Shown here piece after piece: positions 3,832 through 30,291 of a stretch of 32,000 nt of DNA. Source of the stretch: Formosa sp. Hel1_33_131 (GTDB lineage: Bacteria > Bacteroidota > Bacteroidia > Flavobacteriales > Flavobacteriaceae). Location: assembly GCF_001735745.1 (NCBI RefSeq), contig NZ_CP017260.1:2340001-2372000 (forward strand), written 5' to 3'. Below the pieces are notes generated by a model. That model made no database searches and was not told the DNA's origin. It saw only the letters and a program-made list of their open reading frames with translations. Made by a program: the position numbers and the translations under genes. Each line of letters begins with the position of its first letter. The stretch's first letter is position 1.

Positions 3832-4254
3832 TTATTTTTTAACAAGACTGTTTAGAAACTCATCTGGAGACATCACAGGTAGTAATGATTTTTTAAAATC
3901 TTTTCCGTTTCTAGTAATGATTAATTCACAACCAGATTCGATAGCACTAAAATATTGAAGCGCATCTTCAAAATCCTTAAATGATGAATTTAAGCCTTTT
4001 TCAATAGTTTGTGCATCAAGAGAACAAATTTCACTTATAACATTGAACTTCCTCAGTTTTTCTCGAGCCTTTTTAGAGTTTTCAAATTTTGATAGAAAAT
4101 AATTCAAGGTTGCATATGAAATAGGAGAAACCACTAAAGTTAAAACTTCTTTTTCCCCTAAGGATGCTATTTTAGCAATGGACTCATAGAAAGGTTTACG
4201 CTCCCCCAAAAGGTCTAACATTACATTTGTATCTATAAAAATTCTTTTACTCAT
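3832..4254 (-). CDS. PIN-domain toxin (VapC-like)
   Basis: 140 aa. N-terminal IFIDTNVMLD acidic motif and C-terminal ITRNGKDF, as in PIN proteins. ATGA overlap with the upstream small ORF. Confidence 0.75.
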   Translation of the reverse strand: MSKRIFIDTNVMLDLLGERKPFYESIAKIASLGEKEVLTLVVSPISYATLNYFLSKFENSKKAREKLRKFNVISEICSLDAQTIEKGLNSSFKDFEDALQYFSAIESGCELIITRNGKDFKKSLLPVMSPDEFLNSLVKK

Positions 4255-4499
4255 TGATATTTCTCTATTAAGTAATCAGAGTAAACTTCTTTATCATCTA
4301 AATCAGCAGGAATGTTAATCCCTGTTGCCATACTTTTTACAAAAGGAGATATTTCAAAATCCGTTTTATTTTTTTCAGACGTTAGCGACTGCAGATAAGC
4401 CTCAATAATTCTAGATAAACTCATTTTTTTATCAGAAGCATATTTTTTTGCATTCTCAATAATTTCCTGATTTAACTTTAATGTTAGTTTAGTATCCAT
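4251..4499 (-). CDS. cognate antitoxin-like small protein
   Basis: 82 aa. Its stop overlaps the PIN start by 4 nt (ATGA at 4251-4254). N-terminal LTLKLNQEIIENAKKYA...SLSRIIEAYL resembles an RHH-like antitoxin. Confidence 0.55.
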   Translation of the reverse strand: MDTKLTLKLNQEIIENAKKYASDKKMSLSRIIEAYLQSLTSEKNKTDFEISPFVKSMATGINIPADLDDKEVYSDYLIEKYQ

Positions 4500-4517
4500 A
4501 AAATTAATTTATACGTA

Positions 4518-4525
4518 CAAATATA
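4518..4525 (-). promoter_or_regulatory. Bacteroidetes-type -7 box TATATTTG upstream of the antitoxin/PIN pair
   Basis: Exact TAnnTTTG match on the minus strand, 18 nt upstream of the ATG at 4499. Confidence 0.35.
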
Positions 4526-4625
4526 ATAATTAAAGCCGTGCAAACCGATTTTAGAGCAGGATTTTTTGGATGCACGGTAATGAGTCGTTCATCCATTTCC
4601 AATAAGGGAATGTTCCGTCTACTTA

Positions 4626-4793
4626 TTACTGGCAAACAAAAATCTGTTTTTCCGATTGATCATTAAATGCTTCTTCTTCAAAACCTCCAAACTTATGAAT
4701 CACATTAAAACCGCTCCATTCAAGATAGGAATCTAATTCTTGAGGAAAAAACAATCGCATGTCCAAATTTTGAATCGAATCAAACACCCCATT
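4626..4793 (-). pseudogene. C-terminal fragment of a class I SAM-methyltransferase-like gene
   Basis: A frame not listed in the ORF track reads NGVFDSIQNLDMRLFFPQELDSYLEWSGFNVIHKFGGFEEEAFNDQSEKQIFVCQ* (stop at 4626-4628). This looks like the tail of a methyltransferase. No N-terminal part is present. Confidence 0.45.
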
Positions 4794-4927
4794 TCATAAG
4801 TGACACTACAATGTGCTAACATTTGTCCAACTGTCATCTTTCCCCATTTCGGTTTAGAATTTGGATTCAGTAAATTTATTCGTCCGATAATTTCTTCTGA
4901 AACGGTTTTGTCAAATACGTCTTTCAT
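4789..4927 (-). pseudogene. N-terminal fragment of a DUF1569-family gene
   Basis: The first ~46 aa, MKDVFDKTVSEEIIGRINLLNPNSKPKWGKMTVGQMLAHCSVTYEM, match the DUF1569 N-terminus as I recall it. After that the frame runs into unrelated sequence and abuts the methyltransferase fragment. Confidence 0.55.
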
Positions 4928-4951
4928 TTTCTTTAAGTTCGTTTTCAGCTT

Positions 4952-5091
4952 GTTGCCAACGGTTTTGTGTATGGTTAGTTGCGTGATTAAGCAACTAATT
5001 TAGTAAACAAAAACGAGCGCGAGAAAATTCCGAAGGAATTTTCCAAGTAGGCAACGACCAAAGCAATTAATTATACACGGTGTTAGCAAAT
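4952..5091 (-). repeat. attC-like junction element (long form) 3' of the SBBP/T9SS unit
   Basis: Plus-strand layout: GTTGCCAAC (4952-4960), 6-nt spacer, 16-bp stem 4967-4982/5063-5078 (13 Watson-Crick pairs plus 3 G-T), 3-nt spacer, GTTAGCAAAT (5082-5091). The 80-nt loop holds a nested 9-bp hairpin at 5023-5043. Confidence 0.5.
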
Positions 5092-5092
5092 G

Positions 5093-6739
5093 TTATTTTT
5101 TTACAATCTTAATTATCTGTTGGCTATTCTGCGTTTTTATAGTTAAGAAATAGATTCCTTTTGTATTTGGTAATTCAAGGTTTTTGTTAATTATGGAACT
5201 ATAAGTTTGTATTTTAATTATTTTTCCTAAAACATCAGTAATAATAAACTGAACATTATTTACTATTCGACTAAAATTGATGTTTATTATACCTTCCGAA
5301 GGGTTAGGGTAAGCAATTACTTTAATTTTATTACTAATCTCTTGTACTCCTAAATTACTTTGACTCATTTTCTGAACAAAGACATCATAATTTCCTAATG
5401 AAATTAAGTCATTAGTGCCCAAATCAGGGTCAAAATCTACTGTGCCATTAAACCCTCCTACAGTATAAATGTTTTCGGAAGTATCTACAGCTATTGATAT
5501 ACCAGAATCGCTATTACTTCCTCCAAAGGATTTTGCCCAAATTGAATTGCCATTTGTATCCATTTTCTGAACAAAGACATCCCCAGCTCCTTCAGATGTT
5601 AAGTTGTTGATTCCAGTACCAGGATCAAAATCTACAGTTCCATAAAAATAACCTATCAGATAAAGGTCTCCAGAAGCACCTATAACTATTGAGGTACTAC
5701 CATCTAGATTAGCTCCTCCAAAGGATTTTGCCCAAATAAAATTTCCATTTGCATCCATTTTCTGAACAAAGACATCCCTACTTCCTGATGCTGTCAAGTT
5801 ACTTATTGACGTTCCTGAATCAAAATCAACAATGCCTTCAAAATATCCTGTAGTATATACATTTCCAGAAGCGTCTGTAATTATTGAACTACCACCTTCA
5901 TGATCATCTCCTGCAAGGGATTTTGCCCAAAGGAAATTCCCATTTGCATCCATTTTCTGAACAAAGACATCATCATATCCATTTCCTCCTGTTAAGATAC
6001 TAATCCCTGATCCAGGATCAAAATCTCCTGAACCTCGAAAATATCCTGTAGTATATACATTTCCAGAAATATCTAAAGCTATAGATTTCCCTTCACTATA
6101 TCCATTTCCTCCAAATGATTTTGCCCAAAGAAAATTACCGTTGGTATCCAACTTCTGTACAAAAATACCTCTAGTCCCAAACGCTGTTAAGTTGCTTATC
6201 CCTGTTCCCGGATCAAAATCAACAGTACCTTGAAAATATCCTGTAGTGTATACATTTCCAGAAGTATCAACAACTATTGAGAAACCAATGCATATTAAAG
6301 ATGATTCTAAAAAAATTTCCCAAAGGATATTGCCATTGGTGTCCATTTTCTGCACAAAAACATTTCCATTAAATTCTCCTGTTATATAGACATTGTTAGA
6401 AGTATCCAAAGCTATTGAGTAACCAATATTATCACTAAAGGAAGACCCTCCTAAAGATTTTGCCCATTGAAAATTGCCATTTGCATCCAACTTCTGTACA
6501 AAAATACCTTCATCCCCTGACGATGTTAAGTTGCTTATTCCAGTTCCTGGGTCAAAATCTACAGTACCTTGAAAAAAACCTGTAGTATACACATTTCCCA
6601 AAGCGTCAACAGCTATTGAGTAACCAATATCATTATTTATTTCTCCAAAAGATTTTGCCCATTCAAATGTTTGAGCATTTATTGTATTGAATCCTAAAAA
6701 TAGAATTGTAAAAAAGAGTACTTTTAAATTTGTTTTCAT
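5093..6739 (-). CDS. secreted beta-propeller repeat protein (SBBP-type) with T9SS C-terminal sorting domain
   Basis: Signal peptide, then about 7 repeats of GNVYTTGYFxGTVDFDPGTGxxNLTxxGxxDVFVQKMDxNGNFxWAKSFGG. C-terminal ...YPNPSEGIININF...GIYFLTIKTQNSQQIIKIVKK is typical of the type A sorting domain. Confidence 0.85.
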   Translation of the reverse strand: MKTNLKVLFFTILFLGFNTINAQTFEWAKSFGEINNDIGYSIAVDALGNVYTTGFFQGTVDFDPGTGISNLTSSGDEGIFVQKLDANGNFQWAKSLGGSSFSDNIGYSIALDTSNNVYITGEFNGNVFVQKMDTNGNILWEIFLESSLICIGFSIVVDTSGNVYTTGYFQGTVDFDPGTGISNLTAFGTRGIFVQKLDTNGNFLWAKSFGGNGYSEGKSIALDISGNVYTTGYFRGSGDFDPGSGISILTGGNGYDDVFVQKMDANGNFLWAKSLAGDDHEGGSSIITDASGNVYTTGYFEGIVDFDSGTSISNLTASGSRDVFVQKMDANGNFIWAKSFGGANLDGSTSIVIGASGDLYLIGYFYGTVDFDPGTGINNLTSEGAGDVFVQKMDTNGNSIWAKSFGGSNSDSGISIAVDTSENIYTVGGFNGTVDFDPDLGTNDLISLGNYDVFVQKMSQSNLGVQEISNKIKVIAYPNPSEGIININFSRIVNNVQFIITDVLGKIIKIQTYSSIINKNLELPNTKGIYFLTIKTQNSQQIIKIVKK

Positions 6740-6767
6740 CTTAATTTTTTGTTTTCGGTATGCTAAT

Positions 6768-6832
6768 ATTTGCTAACGGTTGGGCTATGCGCAGTGTCCG
6801 GAAGGGCATTGCGTATAGGTGTTGTTGTGCGT
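6768..6832 (-). repeat. attC-like junction element between the SBBP unit and the three-gene unit
   Basis: Plus-strand layout: ATTTGCTAAC, 7-nt spacer, 15-bp stem 6785-6799/6804-6818 (12 Watson-Crick pairs plus 3 G-T) with a 4-nt loop, 5-nt spacer, GTTGTGCGT. Confidence 0.55.
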
Positions 6833-6867
6833 TCGTGCTTTACTTTTCATATTTTCCTCTTCTAAGG

Positions 6868-7440
6868 TTACAATCCATTTACCTTAAATATTAATACACA
6901 CAGTGCTTTATCAAATCGGTGGTAAATTTTTTCCTCTTCTTTTTTGTCGAGAATGGAGTACTTGAATCCTTTTTTTTGAAAGTCACCTCCTGTAACCATT
7001 TTTCGATATTGAAAACGACAACTCTTTATCTCATCAAAGTCATCCTTAAACTTGTTCTTTCCACAATGATCAGAAAGAGTAATAATAGTGTCAAGTTCGT
7101 TAGAGATAGTTGTAAATAGACTTATCAGTTGGTATGTGTTTGCAGTTGAAACGGCCTGTTTTTGAACGCATTCTGCAACGGTGTGATTCACAATTCGAAT
7201 AGTTCCTTGCAAGGCCTCAACTTTGCGAATAATTACATCTTTCTCGCTTCTCTTGTTATGCATGTTTCGCTCAAGAAAAATCGGGATGTAGACAGCAAGA
7301 AAAATTGTGACAAGCAAAGTTGCCAATCCAACTACATCAATTTTGTCTTCAAATGAAAAGAGCGGGTAATAATGCTGTAATCCCATTCCGATTACAACAC
7401 CAACAATTACCAGTATAACTCCAATAATGTAGCGTATCAT
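6868..7440 (-). CDS. 2-TM membrane protein of unknown function (candidate effector)
   Basis: 190 aa. Two N-terminal hydrophobic helices (IIGVILVIVGVVIGMGL, VVGLATLLVTIFLAVYIPIFL), then a soluble helical region. The start overlaps the upstream stop as ATGA (7437-7440). Confidence 0.55.
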   Translation of the reverse strand: MIRYIIGVILVIVGVVIGMGLQHYYPLFSFEDKIDVVGLATLLVTIFLAVYIPIFLERNMHNKRSEKDVIIRKVEALQGTIRIVNHTVAECVQKQAVSTANTYQLISLFTTISNELDTIITLSDHCGKNKFKDDFDEIKSCRFQYRKMVTGGDFQKKGFKYSILDKKEEEKIYHRFDKALCVLIFKVNGL

Positions 7441-7793
7441 TTTTCGTTGGCTTCTTTAATGTACTCGATAATGTCATCTTCTAGGAACGGATCATCATCT
7501 GATTTGAATTCTAGGTTGGCCAGCACGATTTTGGATTCCTTGTACTCCCTTGCAAGACCACCAAAGGCAGCTTCAAGAAAAGAAGTTGCATAGCCTGCCG
7601 TACCATCAAGGTCGATTAACAATTTTTTCTTCTCCGTGAGTGCTTGCTTAAATTTTGGTAGGAGAATCTTTTCCAAAAACTCTTCTCCAGGGAAATCGCC
7701 TTCAATTTCCTCCCGTACACCAGGAATCGTAGTGTAGTCGTTTGCTATTTTAATAATTAACTTGTCCATCTGTTTGTGTTGTTTAGTTCCCAA
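7437..7793 (-). CDS. STAS-like small protein (DUF4325-type)
   Basis: 118 aa (110 aa if the start is the MDKLII Met at 7769). The core LLIDLDGTAGYATSFLEAAFGGL resembles the STAS / anti-sigma-antagonist strand-helix motif. It overlaps both neighbouring genes. Confidence 0.55.
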   Translation of the reverse strand: MGTKQHKQMDKLIIKIANDYTTIPGVREEIEGDFPGEEFLEKILLPKFKQALTEKKKLLIDLDGTAGYATSFLEAAFGGLAREYKESKIVLANLEFKSDDDPFLEDDIIEYIKEANEK

Positions 7794-8785
7794 TAAAGAA
7801 ATGTTCCACTAAATTCTTTTGATAGTCTTTCAAATTTGTCTGTGCTCAAATCAGCCTTCACATCATTCGAAATAATTTTAAGATTGCTGTAGTAATTGCG
7901 TTCAAGGCCTCTGTATATGTTTGGTAATCCCTTACCTCTATAAGGGATCTTAGTGCTTGACATTTTTCGGCCACTGATGATTTCTTTCAATACATCACGG
8001 TTGTCTGTGATACCAAAGAAGGATGTTAGTTTGTCACGGAATCCACTCATTTTTGAAGACTTAAAGATTCCAACTCCCATATCAATGAAAGCAAAAGATA
8101 CCTTGTTATGAGCTTGGTCGTGATACACTGTGAGCCACCAAGTTTCCTGCCCTACTTGTTGGGGTTTAGCATGATAGCAGGTATTTGCCATGCATTCCAT
8201 TAATGCACTATAAATACCCATACATCTTGCCTCTTGTCCAAATACGATTTTTGTTGCTCGTTTTATCAATTCATTGGCAATACCGCCTTCTGCTTTCTTA
8301 TTCTGTCGAGTAAGAATGTAATTCTTGTGTTCGCTATCTGAACTACTTGCACCAAAAACACCGCTTTCCTGAAATATCTTCCTCAATTCTTCATCTCTAG
8401 GGTAGTTGCCTTTAATCGGAACTCCTTTGGTTATTGCAGGATTCTTTACAATCGCTAGTAAAAGGACAATAGCATCATTTGTCAAGTTGGTAATGTCCTT
8501 TAGGTTAATTAAAACCGGCTTTCTGTGATTAATCTTTTCTCGAATTCTTTCTAGATACGCTAAAACGGCAACCGTATTCTCTACAAATGAAAAATTCGAA
8601 GGTGCATGCAAACTCTCAAATTGGCTGATTATCCTTCTTTCACGTTGTTCTGCGATTGGAACCCCATCTGTTGCTCTTCTCTTTGCTTTGGCTTTTTCTT
8701 TACTCAATAGCTGTTGCTTCAAACGATCTTTTGCCCGTTTGGTATTGCGCTTTTTATACTCAGCTGTTGTGTAAAGTTTCTTCAT
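7757..8785 (-). CDS. GHKL-superfamily ATPase/kinase-like protein with basic N-terminal tail and an internal STAS-like segment
   Basis: N-box-like ALMECMANTCYHA, G1-like FIDMGVGI, G2-like RGKGLPNI, terminal GTFLYWEL. Residues 1-50 are Lys/Arg-rich. Residues ~55-140 (VLINLKDITNLTNDAIVLLLAIV) look STAS-like. Confidence 0.6.
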   Translation of the reverse strand: MKKLYTTAEYKKRNTKRAKDRLKQQLLSKEKAKAKRRATDGVPIAEQRERRIISQFESLHAPSNFSFVENTVAVLAYLERIREKINHRKPVLINLKDITNLTNDAIVLLLAIVKNPAITKGVPIKGNYPRDEELRKIFQESGVFGASSSDSEHKNYILTRQNKKAEGGIANELIKRATKIVFGQEARCMGIYSALMECMANTCYHAKPQQVGQETWWLTVYHDQAHNKVSFAFIDMGVGIFKSSKMSGFRDKLTSFFGITDNRDVLKEIISGRKMSSTKIPYRGKGLPNIYRGLERNYYSNLKIISNDVKADLSTDKFERLSKEFSGTFLYWELNNTNRWTS

Positions 8786-8831
8786 TTAAATTTCACTTCC
8801 TGTCTAGGCTTAGCTTGTTCTTTTTTGTATG

Positions 8832-8888
8832 ACGCACAACGGTCTTTGTAAAATGCGTTTTAATGCATCTTTACATATTGTTAGCTGC
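8832..8888 (-). repeat. attC-like junction element between the three-gene unit and the helicase unit
   Basis: Plus-strand layout: ACGCACAAC, 6-nt spacer, stem 8847-8856/8865-8875 (6 bp + 4 bp, with C8869 extrahelical), 4-nt spacer, GTTAGCTGC. Confidence 0.5.
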
Positions 8889-8904
8889 TGGTTTTTGTTT
8901 TTTT

Positions 8905-11058
8905 TTATTCATTTAGTTTTTGTTCGTCTCCGCAATATGGACAGAAAGCGAAGCCTTCGTCCAAGCGGTTGCTACATTTTGAGCAAAGCGTTATTTCCTC
9001 AATTACAGACTTAAATGGAATACTAGTCTTGAAAGTAAAATTATCTGGAATCTCTTTTAGAAAACTCGATTCATTTCCTTTTTCTGTAATAAGAAACAGG
9101 TCGTCTTTTGCTCTTGTGATTGCTACATAAAAAAGTCGTCTTTCTTCTTCAAGTAACAGGTCGTGATTCGATTCTTTGATAACTTGATAAATTCTGTCCT
9201 CCATCCAAATGTCAGGAAATCCTCCACCTCCTTCTGTCAAACCGATAATAAAGACTGCTTTTGCTTCAAGTCCTTTTGAAGCGTGAATTGTTTTGCCTGA
9301 AACAAATACTCGTTCTTGTTTGAATCTTTCAAAATATGGACTGTACATTTTACTTCTGCGATAGAGAAATAGAATATCCTCTTTCGTGTAGCCTTTTTCT
9401 TTTAGCTTGTGTACTTGGTCAAGCACATATTCAATGTTTTCAGCTTCATTTTTCCCTGAATATATGTGAATCTTGCTACTTGACTTTTTATTGGACTGAA
9501 CATTTTTATTTACCTTGAATTTGTTATGCTTGATTACTTCATTACTTGCACCAACAATATGTTCGGTGCTTCTGTAATTCATACTCAATTTTATAGTTTC
9601 GGAATCCTTAAAATGCTTCTTGAAATTTACAATGTAATCTACATTTGAACCTCTGAATCCATATATGCTTTGCCAATCATCTCCAACGCAGAAAAGTTGG
9701 TTTTTAGCTGTCAACAGAAGTTTAATTAATTCCACTTGCAGGTTGTTTACATCTTGAAATTCATCTACTAGAATATATTCATATTTACCTCTGAACTTAT
9801 CTGCTATTTCATTATGATTTTTAAATAGCGAAATGGTCTTTGTAATCATATCGTTGAAGTCGAGATATGATTTGTTGGTGCAATACGATTGATATTGTTC
9901 TATTGCAGGAATGGCAAGTTTGTAAAAATCTCTAACTCGTTCGTGTTGGTCTTTTTGTGATTGTTCTAAAACCATTTTTGTTGGTATATTCTCCACTTTT
10001 ATCATATCAATTACACGCATAGTTTGGCGTAAAAAGTCTTTTACTTCTTTGTGGTAAGAGTTAAATTCCTCCTCAAAAGACAGGGCAGTAGAGAAGTGGT
10101 AATTTGAAGGAAGTCTATTTTTTACAATTCGCTCTAAAACCAAATTAAACAGCGCTGTATCTTTTGTTTGGTGCTCAAATGTTTTTACAAGTAGTTTGTT
10201 TGCTTTGTTAAACTGTTGTTCTTTGCCTTTAGTTGGATAACTTTTTTGGCTTACGTGTTCTAAGTACAGATTGGCTTCTGGAATGAAAAAATCTGGTCTA
10301 AAATCAAAATCTCTGAAATTCACATTAGGTTCATACTCGAACTTGATACTGTGGCGATAAAGCCAATCAGCAATATATTGTTCAGATTTTGAACGAACCT
10401 TAGTTCCGTTTAATGTTGTGTAAAATTTACCGTCCTTAGGTAAGGAAAGACGTTTGTCTTTTTCAATGTGGATTTTATCAATCATATAATCCAAAATGTA
10501 TCTTTTCAAGTTGAGCAGATACTCGTTGGATTCGCAGTTTTCGATTAGAATTTTATGAATGACTTCAAAAGCTGTTTCGGTAGCCGAATACTTTGCAAAT
10601 TCATCATCTGTAGCTTTTGTATCTCCAATAATTTTGAATTTGTTGTCAAATTCATTTACTCCAAAATTTCGGATAATGCCGTAGCAAAGACTATGAAAAG
10701 TCTTGAGCGTTAGGTTATCAATCCATTTGTACTTCTTGGTGAAAAAGTATCGTTCTGTATCTTTTTCTTTTGCAGTTCGATTTTTGTTTGCTAAAATTTC
10801 GACATATTCTTCTGTATCATCTGCTGAAATAATAAGCCTATCAAGCATTTCATTAGCGGCATTTTTAGTAAAAGTGATTGCCAAAATGTTGCTTGGATTT
10901 ACTCCCTTTTCTTCAATGAGATAAATTAGCTTTTGAAGTAAGGTTTTCGTTTTTCCCGAACCTGCTCCTGCAAGTACAAGAAGTCTTTTACATTCAGAAA
11001 CTACAGCTTGTCTCTGTTTTTCATTCAGTCCACTTAAATCAGTTTTGGTTTCCGTCAT
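8905..11058 (-). CDS. SF1 UvrD/Rep-like helicase with embedded restriction-endonuclease-fold-like insert and C-terminal zinc ribbon
   Basis: Helicase motifs I AGAGSGKT, Ia ILAITFTKNAANEM, II ILVDEFQDVN, III VGDDWQSIYGFRG, IV NYRS, V IHASKGLEAKAVFI, VI YVAITRAKDDLFL. The insert between Ia and II carries SKSEQYIADWL...FEYE...RPDFFIP...LYLEH. The C-terminus is CSKCSNRLDEGFAFCPYCG. Confidence 0.88.
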   Translation of the reverse strand: MTETKTDLSGLNEKQRQAVVSECKRLLVLAGAGSGKTKTLLQKLIYLIEEKGVNPSNILAITFTKNAANEMLDRLIISADDTEEYVEILANKNRTAKEKDTERYFFTKKYKWIDNLTLKTFHSLCYGIIRNFGVNEFDNKFKIIGDTKATDDEFAKYSATETAFEVIHKILIENCESNEYLLNLKRYILDYMIDKIHIEKDKRLSLPKDGKFYTTLNGTKVRSKSEQYIADWLYRHSIKFEYEPNVNFRDFDFRPDFFIPEANLYLEHVSQKSYPTKGKEQQFNKANKLLVKTFEHQTKDTALFNLVLERIVKNRLPSNYHFSTALSFEEEFNSYHKEVKDFLRQTMRVIDMIKVENIPTKMVLEQSQKDQHERVRDFYKLAIPAIEQYQSYCTNKSYLDFNDMITKTISLFKNHNEIADKFRGKYEYILVDEFQDVNNLQVELIKLLLTAKNQLFCVGDDWQSIYGFRGSNVDYIVNFKKHFKDSETIKLSMNYRSTEHIVGASNEVIKHNKFKVNKNVQSNKKSSSKIHIYSGKNEAENIEYVLDQVHKLKEKGYTKEDILFLYRRSKMYSPYFERFKQERVFVSGKTIHASKGLEAKAVFIIGLTEGGGGFPDIWMEDRIYQVIKESNHDLLLEEERRLFYVAITRAKDDLFLITEKGNESSFLKEIPDNFTFKTSIPFKSVIEEITLCSKCSNRLDEGFAFCPYCGDEQKLNE

Positions 11059-11788
11059 CTTTCAGATTTTGAGATTCATAAATTAGTCTTTGTCCATTAG
11101 ATTCTATTGAGCCTTTCCCTCTTTGGAAGCATTCAGAAAGTAGGTCAAGGTCATTTGTGTATTTGATAGCTTTGTTTAGAAGCTCTTTTTCCATATCAGT
11201 CCAAGATTCGTATGCTCTTGGGTGATTGATTCTTGCAATCTGAACGTATTCAGAAAGGTTTTCGGTCTTTTGAATTCCTAATTGGTCAACCTTTTCTTTT
11301 AGCTGATTAACAGCTTTTTCGGTGAGCTTATTGAATGTTTCTTTTTGAAAAAAGTCAATTTCCTTGTAAGGGTTGTTTTTTCGATTGTTTCTGTTGGTCA
11401 AGTTGTTGTCTGAAAGATATTGAGTGAAAAAATCTAAAAGCTGTCCTTTTTGGTAGAGATTCCGATACTTTCCATAGAGTTGATTTGAAACAAGAGTTTC
11501 ATTTTTGAATTTCCTTGTCCCAAGGAAGAAGCCAACTAATTTATTGGAAGTAGGGTTTTGCTCTTTTTCTTTAAATAAGTCAATTACGTTTTTAATTTCC
11601 AAATCGTCAATCTCAATTTCTGAAACTGGTTGTGGTTGATTTGTTTTTAGGTAGTCAATAGCAATTTGTAATGCTCGGATAACATCACGTTCATTTAAGA
11701 CACTTTCATTGTCAATCATTTCTCCTGTTGTGGGTGAACAACCTGAGACAAGGGCTTCTAATATTTCTATGGTTCTATTTATATCCAT
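11039..11788 (-). CDS. uncharacterised 249-aa partner of the helicase
   Basis: It overlaps the helicase start by 20 nt. The C-terminal RAYESWTDMEKELL...CFQRGKGSIESNGQRL resembles a SANT/Myb-like W-x3-E-x2-L helix-turn-helix. This assignment is weak and rests on the motif alone. Confidence 0.5.
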   Translation of the reverse strand: MDINRTIEILEALVSGCSPTTGEMIDNESVLNERDVIRALQIAIDYLKTNQPQPVSEIEIDDLEIKNVIDLFKEKEQNPTSNKLVGFFLGTRKFKNETLVSNQLYGKYRNLYQKGQLLDFFTQYLSDNNLTNRNNRKNNPYKEIDFFQKETFNKLTEKAVNQLKEKVDQLGIQKTENLSEYVQIARINHPRAYESWTDMEKELLNKAIKYTNDLDLLSECFQRGKGSIESNGQRLIYESQNLKDDGNQN

Positions 11789-11804
11789 TCGGTTTCTTCA
11801 ACTT

Positions 11805-11876
11805 GCAGCTAACGTTAAGTATATGAAGCGTTGCCTGCCGATAGGCGGCTATGATTTCATATACAGTGTTAGGCAC
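11805..11876 (-). repeat. attC-like junction element between the helicase unit and the Sel1-like unit
   Basis: Plus-strand layout: GCAGCTAAC, 5-nt spacer, 9-bp perfect stem 11819-11827/11856-11864 plus an inner GC stem around GATA, 3-nt spacer, GTTAGGCAC. On the minus strand the end boxes read GCCTAAC ... GTTAGCT. Confidence 0.6.
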
Positions 11877-11884
11877 TTTTTTTT

Positions 11885-12991
11885 TTAATTTTTTCTACTT
11901 TCATAATACTTATACACGACCGCCAATTCTTGCCAACGATTGTTTTCGAGCGAGTAAAAGCTAAAGCTTAGTTGAGTGTAATTCGTTCTATATCTTTTTT
12001 GGTCTAGAAAAAGAACTAGTGTACTATCTCTTAGGAAAATTGGTTTTGAGAAGGTATAAACGATAGAGCACATATTCTTTTCCTTTTCAGTTCCTAGTTT
12101 TTCAGTTTGGTCGAATGTATTTTGAATTTCTTGTGGACTATCAAGACGACTAGAGTAAGGAAATAGATGTTCTTCCCATTCGTGATTCGATAGCGTGCTT
12201 AATTCCTTTAAGATATAACTCTTTTCTTCAGCTGATAACTTTAAATTTTCAGTTTGTTTCCCTCTGTATAATGACCATAATTCAAATTCTTCAGTTGTCT
12301 CAATAGCTGATATCGTTGAATTGATTATTGATGTGTCTATGGACTTTGTATAATAGAGAGTGTCACACTCAAACCTTTCATATTTCCACCTTGATACCCA
12401 ATCTCTGTAAGGATCTTCCATCAGCTCTAATTTATTCTCAGGTATCTCAGACTTTTTGGATTTTTCATTACCCACATCAGGAATAGTAGCGTTGAATTCT
12501 TCAAGATTTATTTTGTCAAAGGTTTGCTTTTTTTCTTCTAGTATCTGCTTAGCTGATTGTAACTCCTCAGAAGACATATAAGCCTTGATTAAATATCTAG
12601 TGGTCGTTCCTTTTTGAATCGGGTCATAAGCAGCAGCAATTTCAGCCCAGACCAAAGCATCTACTTTATATTTTGGATTGGTTGAACTCTTTTCAAAATA
12701 CACAACAGATAATAATCCCATTGCTCTCCCAAACTCTTGATTTGCAGATTTAACTAAATACTGTTCAGCCAGTGAGTCATTTTTTATTTCTAATTCCTTA
12801 CTGTAATAACAAAATCCAACAATAAACTGGGCTACTTTATCACCTGAATTTGCATATGGCTGCATTATTTTAAAAGACTTCATGAATTGTTTCGAATCAA
12901 AAGCTTTCAGTCCTTTTTCAAACCTAGCATCTTGTGAAAATGTTATTGTTGATATGAAGCAAAATAATATTATTGATGTAAATTTTTTCAT
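11885..12991 (-). CDS. secreted protein with N-terminal Sel1-like repeats and an unknown C-terminal domain
   Basis: Signal peptide MKKFTSIILFCFISTITFSQ. Segments such as GDKVAQFIVGFCYY and EFGRAMGLLSVVYF are Sel1/TPR-like. Confidence 0.5.
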   Translation of the reverse strand: MKKFTSIILFCFISTITFSQDARFEKGLKAFDSKQFMKSFKIMQPYANSGDKVAQFIVGFCYYSKELEIKNDSLAEQYLVKSANQEFGRAMGLLSVVYFEKSSTNPKYKVDALVWAEIAAAYDPIQKGTTTRYLIKAYMSSEELQSAKQILEEKKQTFDKINLEEFNATIPDVGNEKSKKSEIPENKLELMEDPYRDWVSRWKYERFECDTLYYTKSIDTSIINSTISAIETTEEFELWSLYRGKQTENLKLSAEEKSYILKELSTLSNHEWEEHLFPYSSRLDSPQEIQNTFDQTEKLGTEKEKNMCSIVYTFSKPIFLRDSTLVLFLDQKRYRTNYTQLSFSFYSLENNRWQELAVVYKYYESRKN

Positions 12992-13063
12992 TGTATTTAA
13001 TTGTGCCTAACTAGTGTGTATATATCCCTTAGGTGTGCATATTTCCATTATATCCAGTGTTTT

Positions 13064-13102
13064 GTTCAACAATACATCCCGATTTGGCATGTATTGTTGA
13101 AC
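13064..13102. repeat. perfect 14-bp inverted repeat with 11-nt spacer
   Basis: GTTCAACAATACAT (13064-13077) and ATGTATTGTTGAAC (13089-13102), lying 73-111 bp upstream of the Sel1-like gene start. Confidence 0.7.
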
Positions 13103-13255
13103 GTTCTGTTTTATATAATTCATTTATATATTTTTTCATCTCACCCATTTTAGCAGTAAAAATCTAAGTCTATTGTTCATTATGATGCGTGCTACGCTAC
13201 TCGATTCGTTTTTAAAAAAACACATACACGCACCCGCTGTGTCATTCACAGTACA

Positions 13256-13329
13256 CTAATATCTTACTAAAAGGTTGAATTGGTTAAAATGAAGAATCAG
13301 ATTTGAGGTCTAAATCTGTCATAAATGTA
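13256..13329. repeat. direct repeat copy 1 (74 bp perfect; 85 bp with 2 mismatches over 13250-13334)
   Basis: Identical to 14446-14519 base by base. Contains a 7-bp stem / 7-nt loop hairpin at 13298-13318. Confidence 0.95.
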
Positions 13330-13347
13330 GTAAAGAAATTTTTCAAA

Positions 13348-14344: not shown

Positions 14345-14445
14345 TAAATCAACTTGTAGGTTTATTTTTTTTAATTTTATTGTTAGTTTTTACAAGATGC
14401 TTTTCACAAACAGGCATAAAAAAAGCTACTCTCAATTTGAGTACT

Positions 14446-14519
14446 CTAATATCTTACTAAAAGGTTGAATTGGTTAAAATGAAGAATCAGATTTGAGGTC
14501 TAAATCTGTCATAAATGTA
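14446..14519. repeat. direct repeat copy 2
   Basis: Identical to 13256-13329, offset 1190 bp. Lies 63 bp downstream of the DCC-family gene stop. Confidence 0.95.
14488..14508 (-). terminator. possible terminator hairpin of the mutS2-DCC transcription unit, inside repeat copy 2
   Basis: CAGATTT-N7-AAATCTG, followed on the minus strand by ATTCTTCATTTT. Confidence 0.3.
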
Positions 14520-14581
14520 TTAAAAATAATTTAATTGTAGTTAAAGTGAGTTGGGTTTTAACATTCGGGTGTTCAATACCA

Positions 14582-17241: not shown

Positions 17242-17907
17242 ATGTTACAACTCAGCGGGACTTGGCGTTCCCATTTAGAACCAGAATTTAAGAAACCTTA
17301 CTTCGAGACATTGGATGTTTTTGTGCATGCCGAATATGGTTTACACCCCTGTTATCCCCCTTTTAATCAGATTTTTAATGCGTTTGAAAGCTGTGCGTTT
17401 GAAGCGGTTAAGGTTGTCATCATCGGTCAGGATCCCTACCATGGTGAAGGACAGGCCAACGGTTTGTGTTTTTCTGTGAATGAAGGAATGCCGCATCCAC
17501 CTTCTTTAAAAAATATTTTCAAGGAATTAGAAACGGATTTGAAACTTCCAGTTCCGTCTAGTGGCGATTTAAGTCCGTGGGCAAACCAAGGCGTGTTACT
17601 TTTAAATGCAACCTTGAGTGTCCGTGCAAAGGAAGCGGGGAGTCATCAAAAACACGGGTGGGAAAAATTCACAAATGAGGTGATCAAAACACTTTCTAGG
17701 GAACGATCGGATTTGGTATTTTTATTATGGGGAAGTTTTGCTAAAAATAAAATTAGATTTATCGATACAGAAAAACATACTGTTTTACAAACGGGACATC
17801 CATCGCCTTTGAGTGCCAATCGTGGTTATTGGTTCGGGAATAAGCATTTTAGTAAAACGAATGAAGTGCTGAAATCATTAGGCAAATCGCCCATTCAATG
17901 GGGTTAA
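17242..17907 (+). CDS. ung: uracil-DNA glycosylase
   Basis: GQDPYHG, LLLN and HPSPLS motifs; 221 aa. Confidence 0.95.
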   Translation: MLQLSGTWRSHLEPEFKKPYFETLDVFVHAEYGLHPCYPPFNQIFNAFESCAFEAVKVVIIGQDPYHGEGQANGLCFSVNEGMPHPPSLKNIFKELETDLKLPVPSSGDLSPWANQGVLLLNATLSVRAKEAGSHQKHGWEKFTNEVIKTLSRERSDLVFLLWGSFAKNKIRFIDTEKHTVLQTGHPSPLSANRGYWFGNKHFSKTNEVLKSLGKSPIQWG

Positions 17908-29670: not shown

Positions 29671-30291
29671 TTATTTAAATTTTATGTCTTCAATTTTCGT
29701 ATTTCCATAATAAAGTGTAGCACTTTTAGTCCCTTTTATCAATGGAAAATATAAATTAATATTTCTTTTTCTTAATTCTTTAGGTTCAAAATACGTTTCG
29801 TGAGGTACTTTTTTTGGATTTTTAAAACTTATTTTATATTTGTTATATGCTTCGAAATGTATGGGTATGATATAATTAGTAATTCCCTCAAATTCATAAT
29901 CCAAAAATGTATCTTTAATACTAGGGTCATACCGATTTTCAAGAGATTTATAGCTTGGCTTATTCTTTATTAATTTGTAAAAATGCCATTTGTCTGTGAA
30001 ATTTGTATAGGCTACATCAACAGGTCTTAGTCTTATTTTGTTTTGATAATCTATAAGTGAAAATTTGTTGGGGTCAAAAGATCTTTTCTTATTATCAATC
30101 ATCTCGATTCTAACTTTAATGTTGTATTGAACTATTTTTTTTGACTTTGTTCTAACATTAGTCACCGCTATTAATTGACTCGCTTTTTTAGTTTTTTCAT
30201 ACTCAATAGTCAGGTTGTCCTCTTGAATTTTAATTTGAGAATAAAATACTTGAGTGAATAGGAATGCTAGTATTATTAATCTTGTTTTCAT
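29671..30291 (-). CDS. secreted hypothetical protein
   Basis: Signal peptide MKTRLIILAFLFTQVFYSQ. No motif recognised. Confidence 0.45.
   Translation of the reverse strand: MKTRLIILAFLFTQVFYSQIKIQEDNLTIEYEKTKKASQLIAVTNVRTKSKKIVQYNIKVRIEMIDNKKRSFDPNKFSLIDYQNKIRLRPVDVAYTNFTDKWHFYKLIKNKPSYKSLENRYDPSIKDTFLDYEFEGITNYIIPIHFEAYNKYKISFKNPKKVPHETYFEPKELRKRNINLYFPLIKGTKSATLYYGNTKIEDIKFK

Follow-up and report, generated by a model that had tools for sequence, protein, structure and literature searches.

An integron-like gene cassette array without its recombinase in the flavobacterium Formosa sp. Hel1_33_131

Analysis of a 32,000-nucleotide stretch of the genome of Formosa sp. Hel1_33_131 (here called the window) revealed a genuine integron-like cassette array that lacks its recombinase. 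The region from 4952 to 13011 is tiled by four GTT.../...AAC bracket repeats of 9 to 10 bp each, and the four units delimited in this way are likely cassettes of an integron-like site-specific recombination system of Flavobacteriia and their phages. The array is probably an undescribed variant and not a canonical integron. The evidence comprises the architecture of the locus, covariation in the stems of the hairpin sites, exact junctions across strains and species, and matches to a model of the site family, as well as the association with a recombinase and a reordering of cassettes between two cultured phages.

The brackets consist of GTTAGCAAAT (5082-5091) and ATTTGCTAAC (6768-6777) for unit 1, GTTGTGCGT (6824-6832) and ACGCACAAC (8832-8840) for unit 2, GTTAGCTGC (8880-8888) and GCAGCTAAC (11805-11813) for unit 3, and GTTAGGCAC (11868-11876) and GTGCCTAAC (13003-13011) for unit 4. 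Within each pair the boxes are exact reverse complements, and complementarity ends at the box edges in all four. The gaps between units measure 46, 39 and 54 bp and fold into imperfect hairpins, with DNA fold z values of -3.0 (6768-6832), -3.3 (11805-11876) and -0.9 for the remaining, third gap. On the minus strand, 11 to 46 nt separate the GTT box from the ORF start and 1 to 35 nt the stop from the AAC box. No TAnnTTTG motif was found upstream of the first gene in any of the four units, and the boxes of unit 4 include the classical pair GCCTAAC/GTTAGGC. On all these points, i.e., the eight boxes with their perfect complementarity, gaps of 39 to 54 bp with imperfect hairpins, the ORF-to-box distances, the missing motif and the classical pair, our results agree with a preliminary description of this DNA.

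All cassettes and sites lie on the minus strand. The array starts at 13011|13012, next to a platform sequence, D1 (13012-13222), with an attI-like junction of the form ...GGGATATATAC-ACACTA|GTT and a perfect 14-bp hairpin (13064-13102). Cassette 4 (11813-13010) carries a 368-aa gene (11885-12991) without a match in Pfam, NCBIfam or PADLOC, and its attC-like site (11805-11876) is composed of an R'' box at 11868-11876 and an R' box at 11805-11813, the latter being the start of cassette 3. Cassette 3 (8840-11812; site at 8832-8888, 57 nt) contains a 249-aa gene (11039-11788) and a gene for a 717-aa UvrD/GajB-like helicase with a C-terminal zinc ribbon (8905-11058; Pfam UvrD-helicase, 2.9e-64; PADLOC GajB models, about 1e-64), which from their sequences form a candidate defence pair. 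Cassette 2 (6777-8839; site at 6768-6832, 65 nt) harbors a STAS-like gene (Pfam DUF4325, 9.6e-12) together with a 342-aa gene and a 190-aa two-transmembrane gene, for both of which the family search matched nothing. Pfam supported neither of the earlier labels "GHKL" and "Sel1-like". Cassette 1 (4960-6776) encodes a 548-aa SBBP beta-propeller protein with a T9SS sorting domain (5093-6739; Pfam SBBP, 1.6e-22; Por_Secre_tail, 4e-8). Its long, "E-type" site (4952-5091; R'' 5082-5091, R' 4952-4960) has a 16-bp stem, GTGTATGGTTAGTTGC / GCAATTAATTATACAC, and is 80 to 88% identical to E-type sites elsewhere that bear other boxes. It is followed by a truncated "cassette 0" (4798-4959), which opens with TTGGCAAC and has a gene start ATG at 4927; this cassette is cut at 4798 and fused there to the 3' remnant of a methyltransferase gene, the position at which homology to the RecQ/methyltransferase-state strain L012 begins.

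The hairpin sites belong to a large family, other members of which occur in Polaribacter phage P12002L and in contigs of flavobacterial phages. A single 22-nt degenerate pattern recovered 23 viral-contig loci, in most of which the bracket rule holds, and more than 30 further cassettes obey the same rule. Family sites are hairpins of 57 to 270 nt, all in one orientation, without extrahelical (bulged) bases and with an unpaired spacer that is asymmetric, 3 nt on one side and about 6 nt on the other. Across 50 aligned sites, 13 of 16 stem pairs vary on both sides (147 cells), a level of covariation reached in 0 of 500 shuffles, with slid controls far lower. The top strand shows A.C (G.T on the bottom strand) at stem position 7 in 41/47 sites and at position 12 in 46/47, and these two positions likely mark which strand folds and the direction of the site. 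We built a covariance model, R1, from 76 sites outside the window, the loops of which were trimmed, so that long-loop sites are missed. Its three top matches in the window were the sites of cassette 2 (6769-6832, 28.1 bits, E = 0.001), cassette 4 (11805-11875, 26.2 bits, E = 0.0026) and cassette 3 (8832-8888, 25.0 bits, E = 0.0045). All three are full-length matches to the minus strand, and the E values are rough owing to a short calibration. This family-specific model thus matches three of the four gaps on the coding strand; at 4952-5091 R1 matched the two ends only, because the loop is long. D1 gave a weak match (13003-13067, minus strand, 12.3 bits, E = 1.7).

The array lies in a conserved chromosomal hotspot, with DCC1-like/MutS2 genes on one side and a PIN/DUF6364 toxin-antitoxin pair plus dctA on the other. 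Closely related strains, such as L001, carry a single RDD-gene cassette in place of the four-unit block, with its own 10-bp bracket, GTTACCATAC/GTATGGTAAC. The breakpoints between the window and L001 lie at CAAC|G (C4960|G4961) and ...AAC|TAGTGTG (13011|13012), and right up to these points the flanks share 99.0% and 97.7% identity; the terminal hairpin sites of the two states are 76% identical, with two compensatory stem changes. D1 is absent in L012, is 97.7% conserved in strains with a different array and is joined by four different first cassettes, always at the same nucleotide. The hotspot is also occupied in other species of the genus, where different cassettes with brackets of 9 to 10 bp abut conserved D1 or D2 sequences, with the junction at ..TA|GTT. 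Breakpoints in related strains and species, as foreseen in the preliminary description, thus fall exactly at the boxes, but the 8 kb form one invariant block in 20/20 contigs with the exact helicase protein of the window, and no unit-by-unit turnover of these four units was seen among them. Recent movement of single units in this population is therefore unsupported.

Complete platforms, all of them found in phage or prophage genomes, carry a divergent Xer-like tyrosine recombinase of ~266 aa that scores closest to XerA/XerC/XerD models and has no IntI-specific insertion (I2 helix). The array begins 40 to 110 bp upstream of the recombinase start codon at ...TATATA..TA|GTT, and the attI-like junction and first-cassette brackets were identified in 13 platforms; in one contig (L115) the divergent recombinase adjoins an array of at least six cassettes. 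The recombinase served to retrieve 65 viral loci. In this set, strict site patterns occurred only upstream of close relatives (≥43% identity), always on the opposite strand, and were missing at the other, distant tyrosine recombinase loci. The single further pattern match (L163) sits beside a partial recombinase match of 47% identity. Most cassette genes of the phage platforms lie on the strand opposite to the sites, so that the mRNA corresponds to the G.U-capable strand, and the hairpins may have a role at the RNA level there. The window contains neither this recombinase nor one of any other tyrosine recombinase family, as had been claimed before, and a search of ±10 kb at 104 related loci, and of phage P12002L, found none either. 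Because these loci hold no such enzyme, it is from its association with arrays in the complete platforms that we infer that the ~266-aa recombinase catalyses cassette exchange.

The cassettes of the cultured sister phages P12002L and P12002S are the same but differently ordered, and the junction falls at GTT. Both phages have a methyltransferase cassette (99.2% identical), but the cassettes that come after it differ, with the junctions ..CCAAAC|GTTACCTGCA in P12002L and ..CCAAAC|GTTAGCAACA in P12002S. A "CALIN" of two sites had been predicted in P12002L with canonical tools (Qi et al. 2023, PMC9892861), and it belongs to the same site family as the window. P12002L_attC1 corresponds to 30003-30061 of our locus L198 (R1, 28.4 bits), and attC2 is a 72-nt repeat ahead of two arrays. 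In that study, IntI1 did not recombine P12002L_attC1 but did recombine attC2, via the bottom strand, an assignment that agrees with ours. The bracket series over about 10 P12002L cassettes is absent from that report, as are the wider family, the associated recombinase and the chromosomal arrays described here.

Chance, i.e., terminator hairpins combined with fortuitous short inverted repeats, is a practically negligible explanation. GTT/AAC pairs of 9 bp are common in the window (39), a tiled chain of at least four pairs arose in 64 of 2000 dinucleotide shuffles of the 32 kb (3.2%), and unrelated loci also show such chains if coding DNA is allowed; tiling by itself is therefore weak evidence. 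Masking the ORFs left only the four real pairs and one low-complexity pair, and when the gene layout was fixed and only the five spacers were shuffled, single links arose at frequencies of 4e-4 to 5e-3, which gives a four-link product of about 5e-13. This probability, the matches of a model trained elsewhere, the further cassettes obeying the rule and the strain breakpoints refute a chance origin. It is also very improbable that the hairpins represent a repetitive intergenic element (terminator, mRNA-stabilising stem-loop or MITE/REP-like) and that blocks are swapped by homologous recombination between the arms. The conserved stem-arm sequence could support such exchange, the transcript in phages is the G.U-capable strand, and the four units form one block in this population. 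However, homologous exchange explains neither the unit-specific complementarity of 9 to 10 bp, nor junctions at the same nucleotide beside the unrelated D1, nor the constant orientation relative to the recombinase, and the coding strand has no T run after the hairpins.

Integrons and CALINs (Mazel 2006; IntegronFinder definitions) share with this system promoterless-looking cassettes in a single orientation, an imperfect hairpin after each cassette with AAC and GTT as its sole invariant parts, a cassette start complementary to its own inverse core, a crossover at G|TT or close to it, a divergent tyrosine recombinase beside an attI-like junction in complete platforms, the existence of integrase-less arrays, and contents that look like defence and toxin-antitoxin genes. 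The class 1 cassettes we fetched obey the same complementarity rule (8 to 10 bp). Together with the classical pair in unit 4, the HattCI prediction of a family site in P12002L and the recombination of attC2 by IntI1 (PMC9892861), this would fit a canonical CALIN with ordinary attC sites and a true, I2-containing IntI encoded by another part of the Formosa genome or by a plasmid. We nevertheless regard this as unlikely. The sites differ from attC in the missing extrahelical bases, the 3-versus-6-nt spacer and the two conserved G.T/A.C positions; neither site model detects the other's sites, and R1 gave no significant match in four class 1 arrays. The enzyme lacks I2 in every complete platform found, IntI1 was inactive on P12002L_attC1, and IntegronFinder surveys found Bacteroidetes nearly devoid of integrons (PMC9024848). 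Further differences are the phage or prophage location of complete platforms, the mostly antisense cassette genes and the two multi-gene window cassettes of 2 to 3 kb. The preliminary description's central reading, a cassette start complementary to its own inverse core after a G|TT crossover, is thus upheld by the class 1 rule, the breakpoints, R1 and the two phages, but its expectation of an ordinary integron or CALIN with intI elsewhere is not.

Quite improbable, too, is that a host XerC/XerD-type resolvase moves the cassettes at sites mimicking dif, with the 266-aa enzyme incidental or a helper. IMEX elements enter chromosomal dif via host XerCD, and in Acinetobacter plasmids pdif modules lie between 28-bp sites of alternating orientation. 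Such a mechanism would fit the Xer-like layout of the site, with two arms flanking a centre of ~6 nt, the Xer-like recombinase and the persistence of arrays without an encoded dedicated enzyme. IMEX (CTX phage) and pdif modules likewise combine an Xer-family recombinase without I2 with modules bounded by recombination sites (PMC7790495), and CTX phage can use a folded single-stranded hairpin as substrate. The present system, in contrast, has one-way hairpins and a dedicated recombinase adjoining the array, to which the arrays are tightly and directionally tied. As for cassettes at chromosomal sites away from an integrase, such as D1 and D2, a preprint (Loot et al., 10.1101/2022.09.11.507474) offers a precedent in the insertion of cassettes outside att sites by integron integrases; it concerns IntI and canonical attC, whereas here one specific, conserved sequence of the chromosome serves repeatedly in different species.

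In the integron-like system that we propose, each cassette, read on the minus (coding, "top") strand, consists of TT and a unit-specific box, the gene or genes, and the complement of that box (R''), which ends in AAC. After about 3 nt come the 5' stem arm, a variable loop and the 3' stem arm, then about 6 nt and, as the last base, a G; the next cassette opens with the following TT. This order of parts fits the insertion of a circular cassette with one folded hairpin site by strand exchange at or beside G|TT. The window array begins at the attI-like D1, with the enzyme missing from the locus. The recombinase presumably works in trans, e.g., during phage infection or lysogeny, and its substrate would be the folded bottom strand. 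Unit 3, and perhaps also unit 2, may act in phage defence. Flavobacteria and their phages thus apparently share a cassette system that is new to description.

The four units lie within a variable island of ~11 kb between the gene for a DctA-type symporter and a DCC1-like/MutS2 gene pair, with housekeeping genes on both flanks. MutS2 of the window shares 98% identity with the protein of a metagenome-assembled Formosa genome. The island contains a PIN/DUF6364 toxin-antitoxin pair, gene fragments, the four units, and an HTH_3 gene with a neighboring gene for a 183-amino-acid (aa) protein. Unit 1 encodes an SBBP/T9SS protein, unit 2 a trio including DUF4325 (STAS-like), unit 3 a 249-aa protein and a GajB-like UvrD helicase, and unit 4 a 368-aa protein without a family match. 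Unit 3, and perhaps also unit 2, is a candidate phage defence unit. Rfam and tRNA scans of the window gave zero matches.

Closer examination of the units confirmed the four bracket pairs at the positions described before, in which a GTT-box at one end of a unit is perfectly reverse-complementary to a box ending in AAC at the other, without further extension in any of the four (5082-5091/6768-6777, 6824-6832/8832-8840, 8880-8888/11805-11813, and 11868-11876/13003-13011). Together the units cover positions 5082 to 13011, separated by 46, 39, and 54 bp. The distances from the boxes to the first and last open reading frame (ORF) of each unit agree with the preliminary description, and the Bacteroidetes -7 motif TAnnTTTG is absent upstream of every unit's first gene. 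A hairpin had been proposed for each gap; in two of the three, folding is far stronger than in shuffled sequence (z about -3). GTT/AAC inverted pairs of at least 9 bp are common, with 39 in the window, and a tiled chain of four arose in 3.2% of dinucleotide shuffles and also by chance in unrelated loci. Shuffling, which had been suggested as a test that could refute the array, thus could not settle the question of chance by this criterion alone, and the raw chain statistic was discarded as too permissive and replaced by ORF-masked and spacer-only tests. ORF masking left only the four real pairs and one low-complexity pair. When only the five spacers were shuffled, each link appeared at a frequency of 4e-4 to 5e-3, i.e., about 5e-13 for four links. 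The improbable part is that every box falls in an intergenic spacer. Furthermore, class 1 integron arrays show the same bracket rule over 8 to 10 bp, as in the aadB cassette with GTTAGGCCGC/GCGGCCTAAC, so the proposed cassette signature is real. The start of a cassette complements its own inverse core, and the junctions differ between genomes at G|TT in strains, species, and phages alike.

Contigs with identical flanking proteins differ in content at this spot. In the commonest strain state, the spot is occupied by one RDD-gene unit, perfectly bracketed by boxes of its own, GTTACCATAC/GTATGGTAAC. Window and RDD state share 99.0% identity up to C4960 and 97.7% from 13012 onward, while element E, the 140-nt attC-like site of the first unit (4952-5091), is only 76% identical to its RDD-state version. 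The two E versions differ, among other things, by two compensatory changes in a stem of 16 bp. The exchange of E fixes the polarity: a hairpin moves together with the gene that lies 5' of it on the coding strand. The cassette order on the minus strand accordingly reads as TT-box, genes, box-AAC, hairpin, G, as in integrons. Probing a metagenome collection with D1, the platform sequence at 13012-13222 (minus strand), yielded two more first cassettes, GCACTACAAC|TAGTGTG and GTTGCCAAC|TAGTGTG, at the same junction nucleotide, for a total of four first-cassette states at D1. In one of these states, an E-type site 88% identical to that of the window is combined with different boxes. Turnover unit by unit, which had been proposed as a check in related strains, was not seen for the window's four units, which always occurred as one block (20 contigs, exact look-up of the helicase protein). 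In other species of the genus (L027, L029, L034, L036, and L037), the same hotspot is occupied by other cassettes, which have brackets of 9 to 10 bp, and each first cassette is joined at ..TA|GTT to one of two conserved upstream sequences, D1 and D2.

In one of these species (L036), a ~330-bp stretch comprising a 93-bp element and D2 is duplicated (12565-12890 and 17255-17540), and a different single cassette follows each copy. The cassettes at the second copy and in L037 stop directly at the box-AAC and then continue into the same flank (AAAGAACTGAGC...), which is either a shared hairpin site or chromosomal sequence. In a species-representative metagenome-assembled genome (L025, ~13010-13150), this hotspot has a degenerate E-type site directly upstream of a gene for a RecQ helicase. 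The strain state with RecQ may thus itself be cassette-derived.

At the array start, D1 of the window reads GGGATATATACACACTA|GTT, which fits the attI-like ..ATATA..TA|GTT of phage platforms. Inside D1, positions 13064 to 13102 form a perfect 14-bp hairpin, GTTCAACAATACAT-11 nt-ATGTATTGTTGAAC (DNA fold z = -4.6), that opens with GTT and closes with AAC like an "empty" bracket and is partly kept in other D1 copies. A small ORF across D1/D2 that ends at the junction was dropped from consideration, as its protein is not conserved. In strain L001, which has the RDD state, a second D1-like copy (2077-2203, 81% identity) lies about 7 kb to the left of where the window starts. It is accompanied by the 93-bp element, has a tiny ORF for a signal peptide and an ASCH-domain gene beside it, and showed no clear bracket. 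The second copy suggests that a genome may have more than one attI-like hotspot.

Further features of the island lie beside the array. The PIN (VapC-like)/DUF6364 pair (3832-4499) forms the distal island edge; every strain variant has it, and its surroundings showed no bracket boxes. Next to it, in the gene fragments at 4504-4927, only the 3' part of a methyltransferase gene (class I) is left and is fused at 4798 with the 5' part of a different gene, which marks a deletion truncating the distal array end; the methyltransferase is intact beside the RecQ gene in strains L012 and L014. On the other side, the HTH_3 and 183-aa genes are bracketed by a ~93-bp direct repeat (13250-13341 and 14440-14532) with the hairpin CAGATTT..AAATCTG. 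The presence of this module varies between strains, and in other strains different modules (RhuM plus HTH) lie between copies of the same repeat; further copies are found in other parts of the genome (2339-2388 and 5632-5680 of L001). The repeat looks like the attachment site of a second, independent insertion system.

To characterize the hairpins, we searched for a common site family. A generic scan of related loci picked up mainly terminators, so that family filters were required; alignment of the long sites gave conserved arms. A single 22-nt degenerate pattern then led to 23 IMG/VR loci, most of which obey the bracket rule. About 80 sites share one top-strand plan: box-AAC, 3 nt (A-N-N), a 5' arm (G-T/G-R-T-A-T/A-A...), a loop of a few to >200 nt, a 3' arm, about 6 nt, and a GTT-box. 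The integron site architecture R''(..AAC)-spacer-L''...L'-spacer-R'(GTT..) with a variable loop is thus present. Among 50 aligned sites, 13 of the 16 stem pairs vary in both partners (147 cells), a value reached by none of 500 shuffles, and slid controls remained far lower. At stem positions 7 and 12, A stands opposite C on the top strand, i.e., G opposite T on the bottom strand (in 41 of 47 and 46 of 47 sites, respectively). The stems of the aligned sites are continuous, with no bulges and no extrahelical bases in the L stem.

A covariance model, R1, was built from 76 sites outside the window with the loop trimmed and was run without filters on the 32 kb. The attC-model search proposed in the preliminary description, carried out in this family-specific form, gave three of the four expected sites as its best matches: 6769-6832, 11805-11875, and 8832-8888, all on the minus strand and over the full length (25 to 28 bits, E = 0.001-0.0045). 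D1 gave a weak fourth match in the window. The model performs well on short sites and splits those with long loops, as it was made from loop-trimmed sites; E was accordingly split in two, and it is 80 to 88% identical to E-type members. In long-loop phage sites (L115, 5700-7400; L116 and L118), small bottom-strand ORFs start inside the loop and read through the 5' arm and the box into the cassette, so that the recombination site overlaps coding sequence. The hairpins may have an RNA-level role in phage transcripts.

No tyrosine recombinase was found in the window, as described before, or in 104 related loci of ±10 kb. At the viral locus L115, at least six cassettes run away from a divergent 266-aa tyrosine recombinase. 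This protein scores best against XerA, XerC, and XerD models and stays below every curated cutoff, including that for integron integrases (TIGR02249, 121 bits versus a cutoff of 265). The closest solved structures are archaeal XerA, followed by IntI4 and XerD. Alignment of the protein and nine relatives to IntI1 showed that the catalytic R, K, H-x-x-R, H, and Y are kept and that all ten lack about 45 residues at the IntI1-specific insertion. The family comprises >120 protein clusters at 52 to 71% identity. In 65 viral loci retrieved with the L115 protein, site patterns and R1 matches were confined to the opposite strand immediately upstream of close relatives; a single further match (L163) adjoins a 47%-identical partial recombinase match, and the other loci, with distant recombinases, gave none. 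The first junction of these platforms, ..TATATA..TA|GTT, lies 40 to 110 bp from the recombinase start codon. The platforms belong to phages or prophages (RIIA, primase, terminase, head protease, and tail genes are present), and in some a separate larger integrase lies immediately downstream. A Thalassobellus prophage platform gave a weak site match (19 bits). The divergent ~266-aa recombinase expected 40 to 110 bp from the first junction is missing from the window, which is thus an array without its enzyme, like that of phage P12002L, where no member of this recombinase family was found.

Different phage arrays mostly have only their sites in common in BLAST comparisons and are therefore unfit for presence/absence tests, except for P12002L versus P12002S. 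In these two, a methyltransferase cassette is 99.2% identical, site included, up to ..CCAAAC, after which one phage continues with GTTACCTGCA and the other with GTTAGCAACA, the start of a cassette placed upstream in P12002L. The cassette order has thus changed, with the junction at GTT. A "CALIN" was reported in the Polaribacter phage P12002L by Qi et al. in 2023 (PMC9892861). There, P12002L_attC1 was predicted by HattCI only and gave no verified recombinants with IntI1, while recombinants were obtained with attC2 (PMC9892861). We found that attC1 is a member of the hairpin family described here. P12002L_attC2 is a 72-nt identical repeat (L198, 29169-29240 and 37204-37275) ahead of two separate arrays and is possibly an attI-like platform site instead of an attC. 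Different first cassettes, GTTAGGCACA and GTTACCCACA, follow its two copies.

Current views place hardly any integrons in Bacteroidota and tie single-strand recombination in integrons to the I2 insertion of IntI. The arrays described here share the cassette order and site architecture of integrons and differ from them in enzyme and site. Integrons use an IntI with the I2 helix, whereas the ~266-aa recombinase beside these arrays has none; the L stem of integron attC sites carries extrahelical bases, whereas the present sites lack these and have A.C/G.T at positions 7 and 12 instead. As IntI uses its I2 helix to dock extrahelical bases (PMC7790495), the two absences fit each other. R1 in turn found no attC site in class 1 arrays, and IntegronFinder surveys reported almost no integrons in Bacteroidetes (PMC9024848). 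Xer-dependent mobile modules are the other comparison suggested by the recombinase. In contrast to pdif modules and IMEX, which have 28-bp XerC/XerD core sites in alternating orientation or integrate at dif, the window has hairpins of 57 to 140 nt in one orientation, on the strand pointing away from the platform junction. Hairpins between genes could also be intrinsic terminators or REP/MITE-type repeats. This explanation is unlikely: on the coding strand, the hairpins are not followed by a T run, and their ends are unit-specific and complementary across each unit.

We slightly favor the view that Flavobacteriia and their phages harbor a separate integron-like platform lineage, in which a short, I2-less, Xer-like recombinase shuffles cassettes via folded hairpins. 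One partner of the strand exchange would be an attI-like duplex site and the other a folded one, and the enzyme would act at G|TT or next to it. The bottom strand would be the one that folds, as suggested by the G.T asymmetry, with the asymmetric spacer and the two fixed G.T wobbles replacing extrahelical bases as strand markers. Phages would thereby shuffle counter-defence genes, e.g., those for DNA methyltransferases, while hosts, as in the window, would accumulate helicase-based and other candidate defence cassettes at conserved attI-like hotspots, with chromosomal arrays filled by the recombinase in trans. Such a lineage would have arrived at the integron principle independently or would have survived from a stage of integron evolution that preceded I2. 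The window is an enzyme-less member of this recombinase-site variant, and our search of the open-access literature (full text) found no description of the recombinase-site pairing.

If this view is correct, the integron principle would extend to a major ocean clade, the marine Flavobacteriaceae and their phages, without I2 or extrahelical bases. The system would offer a natural test of structure-specific recombination without I2 and would bear on the proposed transition from Xer to IntI (PMC7790495). It would also represent a route of gene flow between phage and host that tools of the IntegronFinder type have probably missed, and it would help to explain the strain-level variable islands in bloom-forming Formosa populations.
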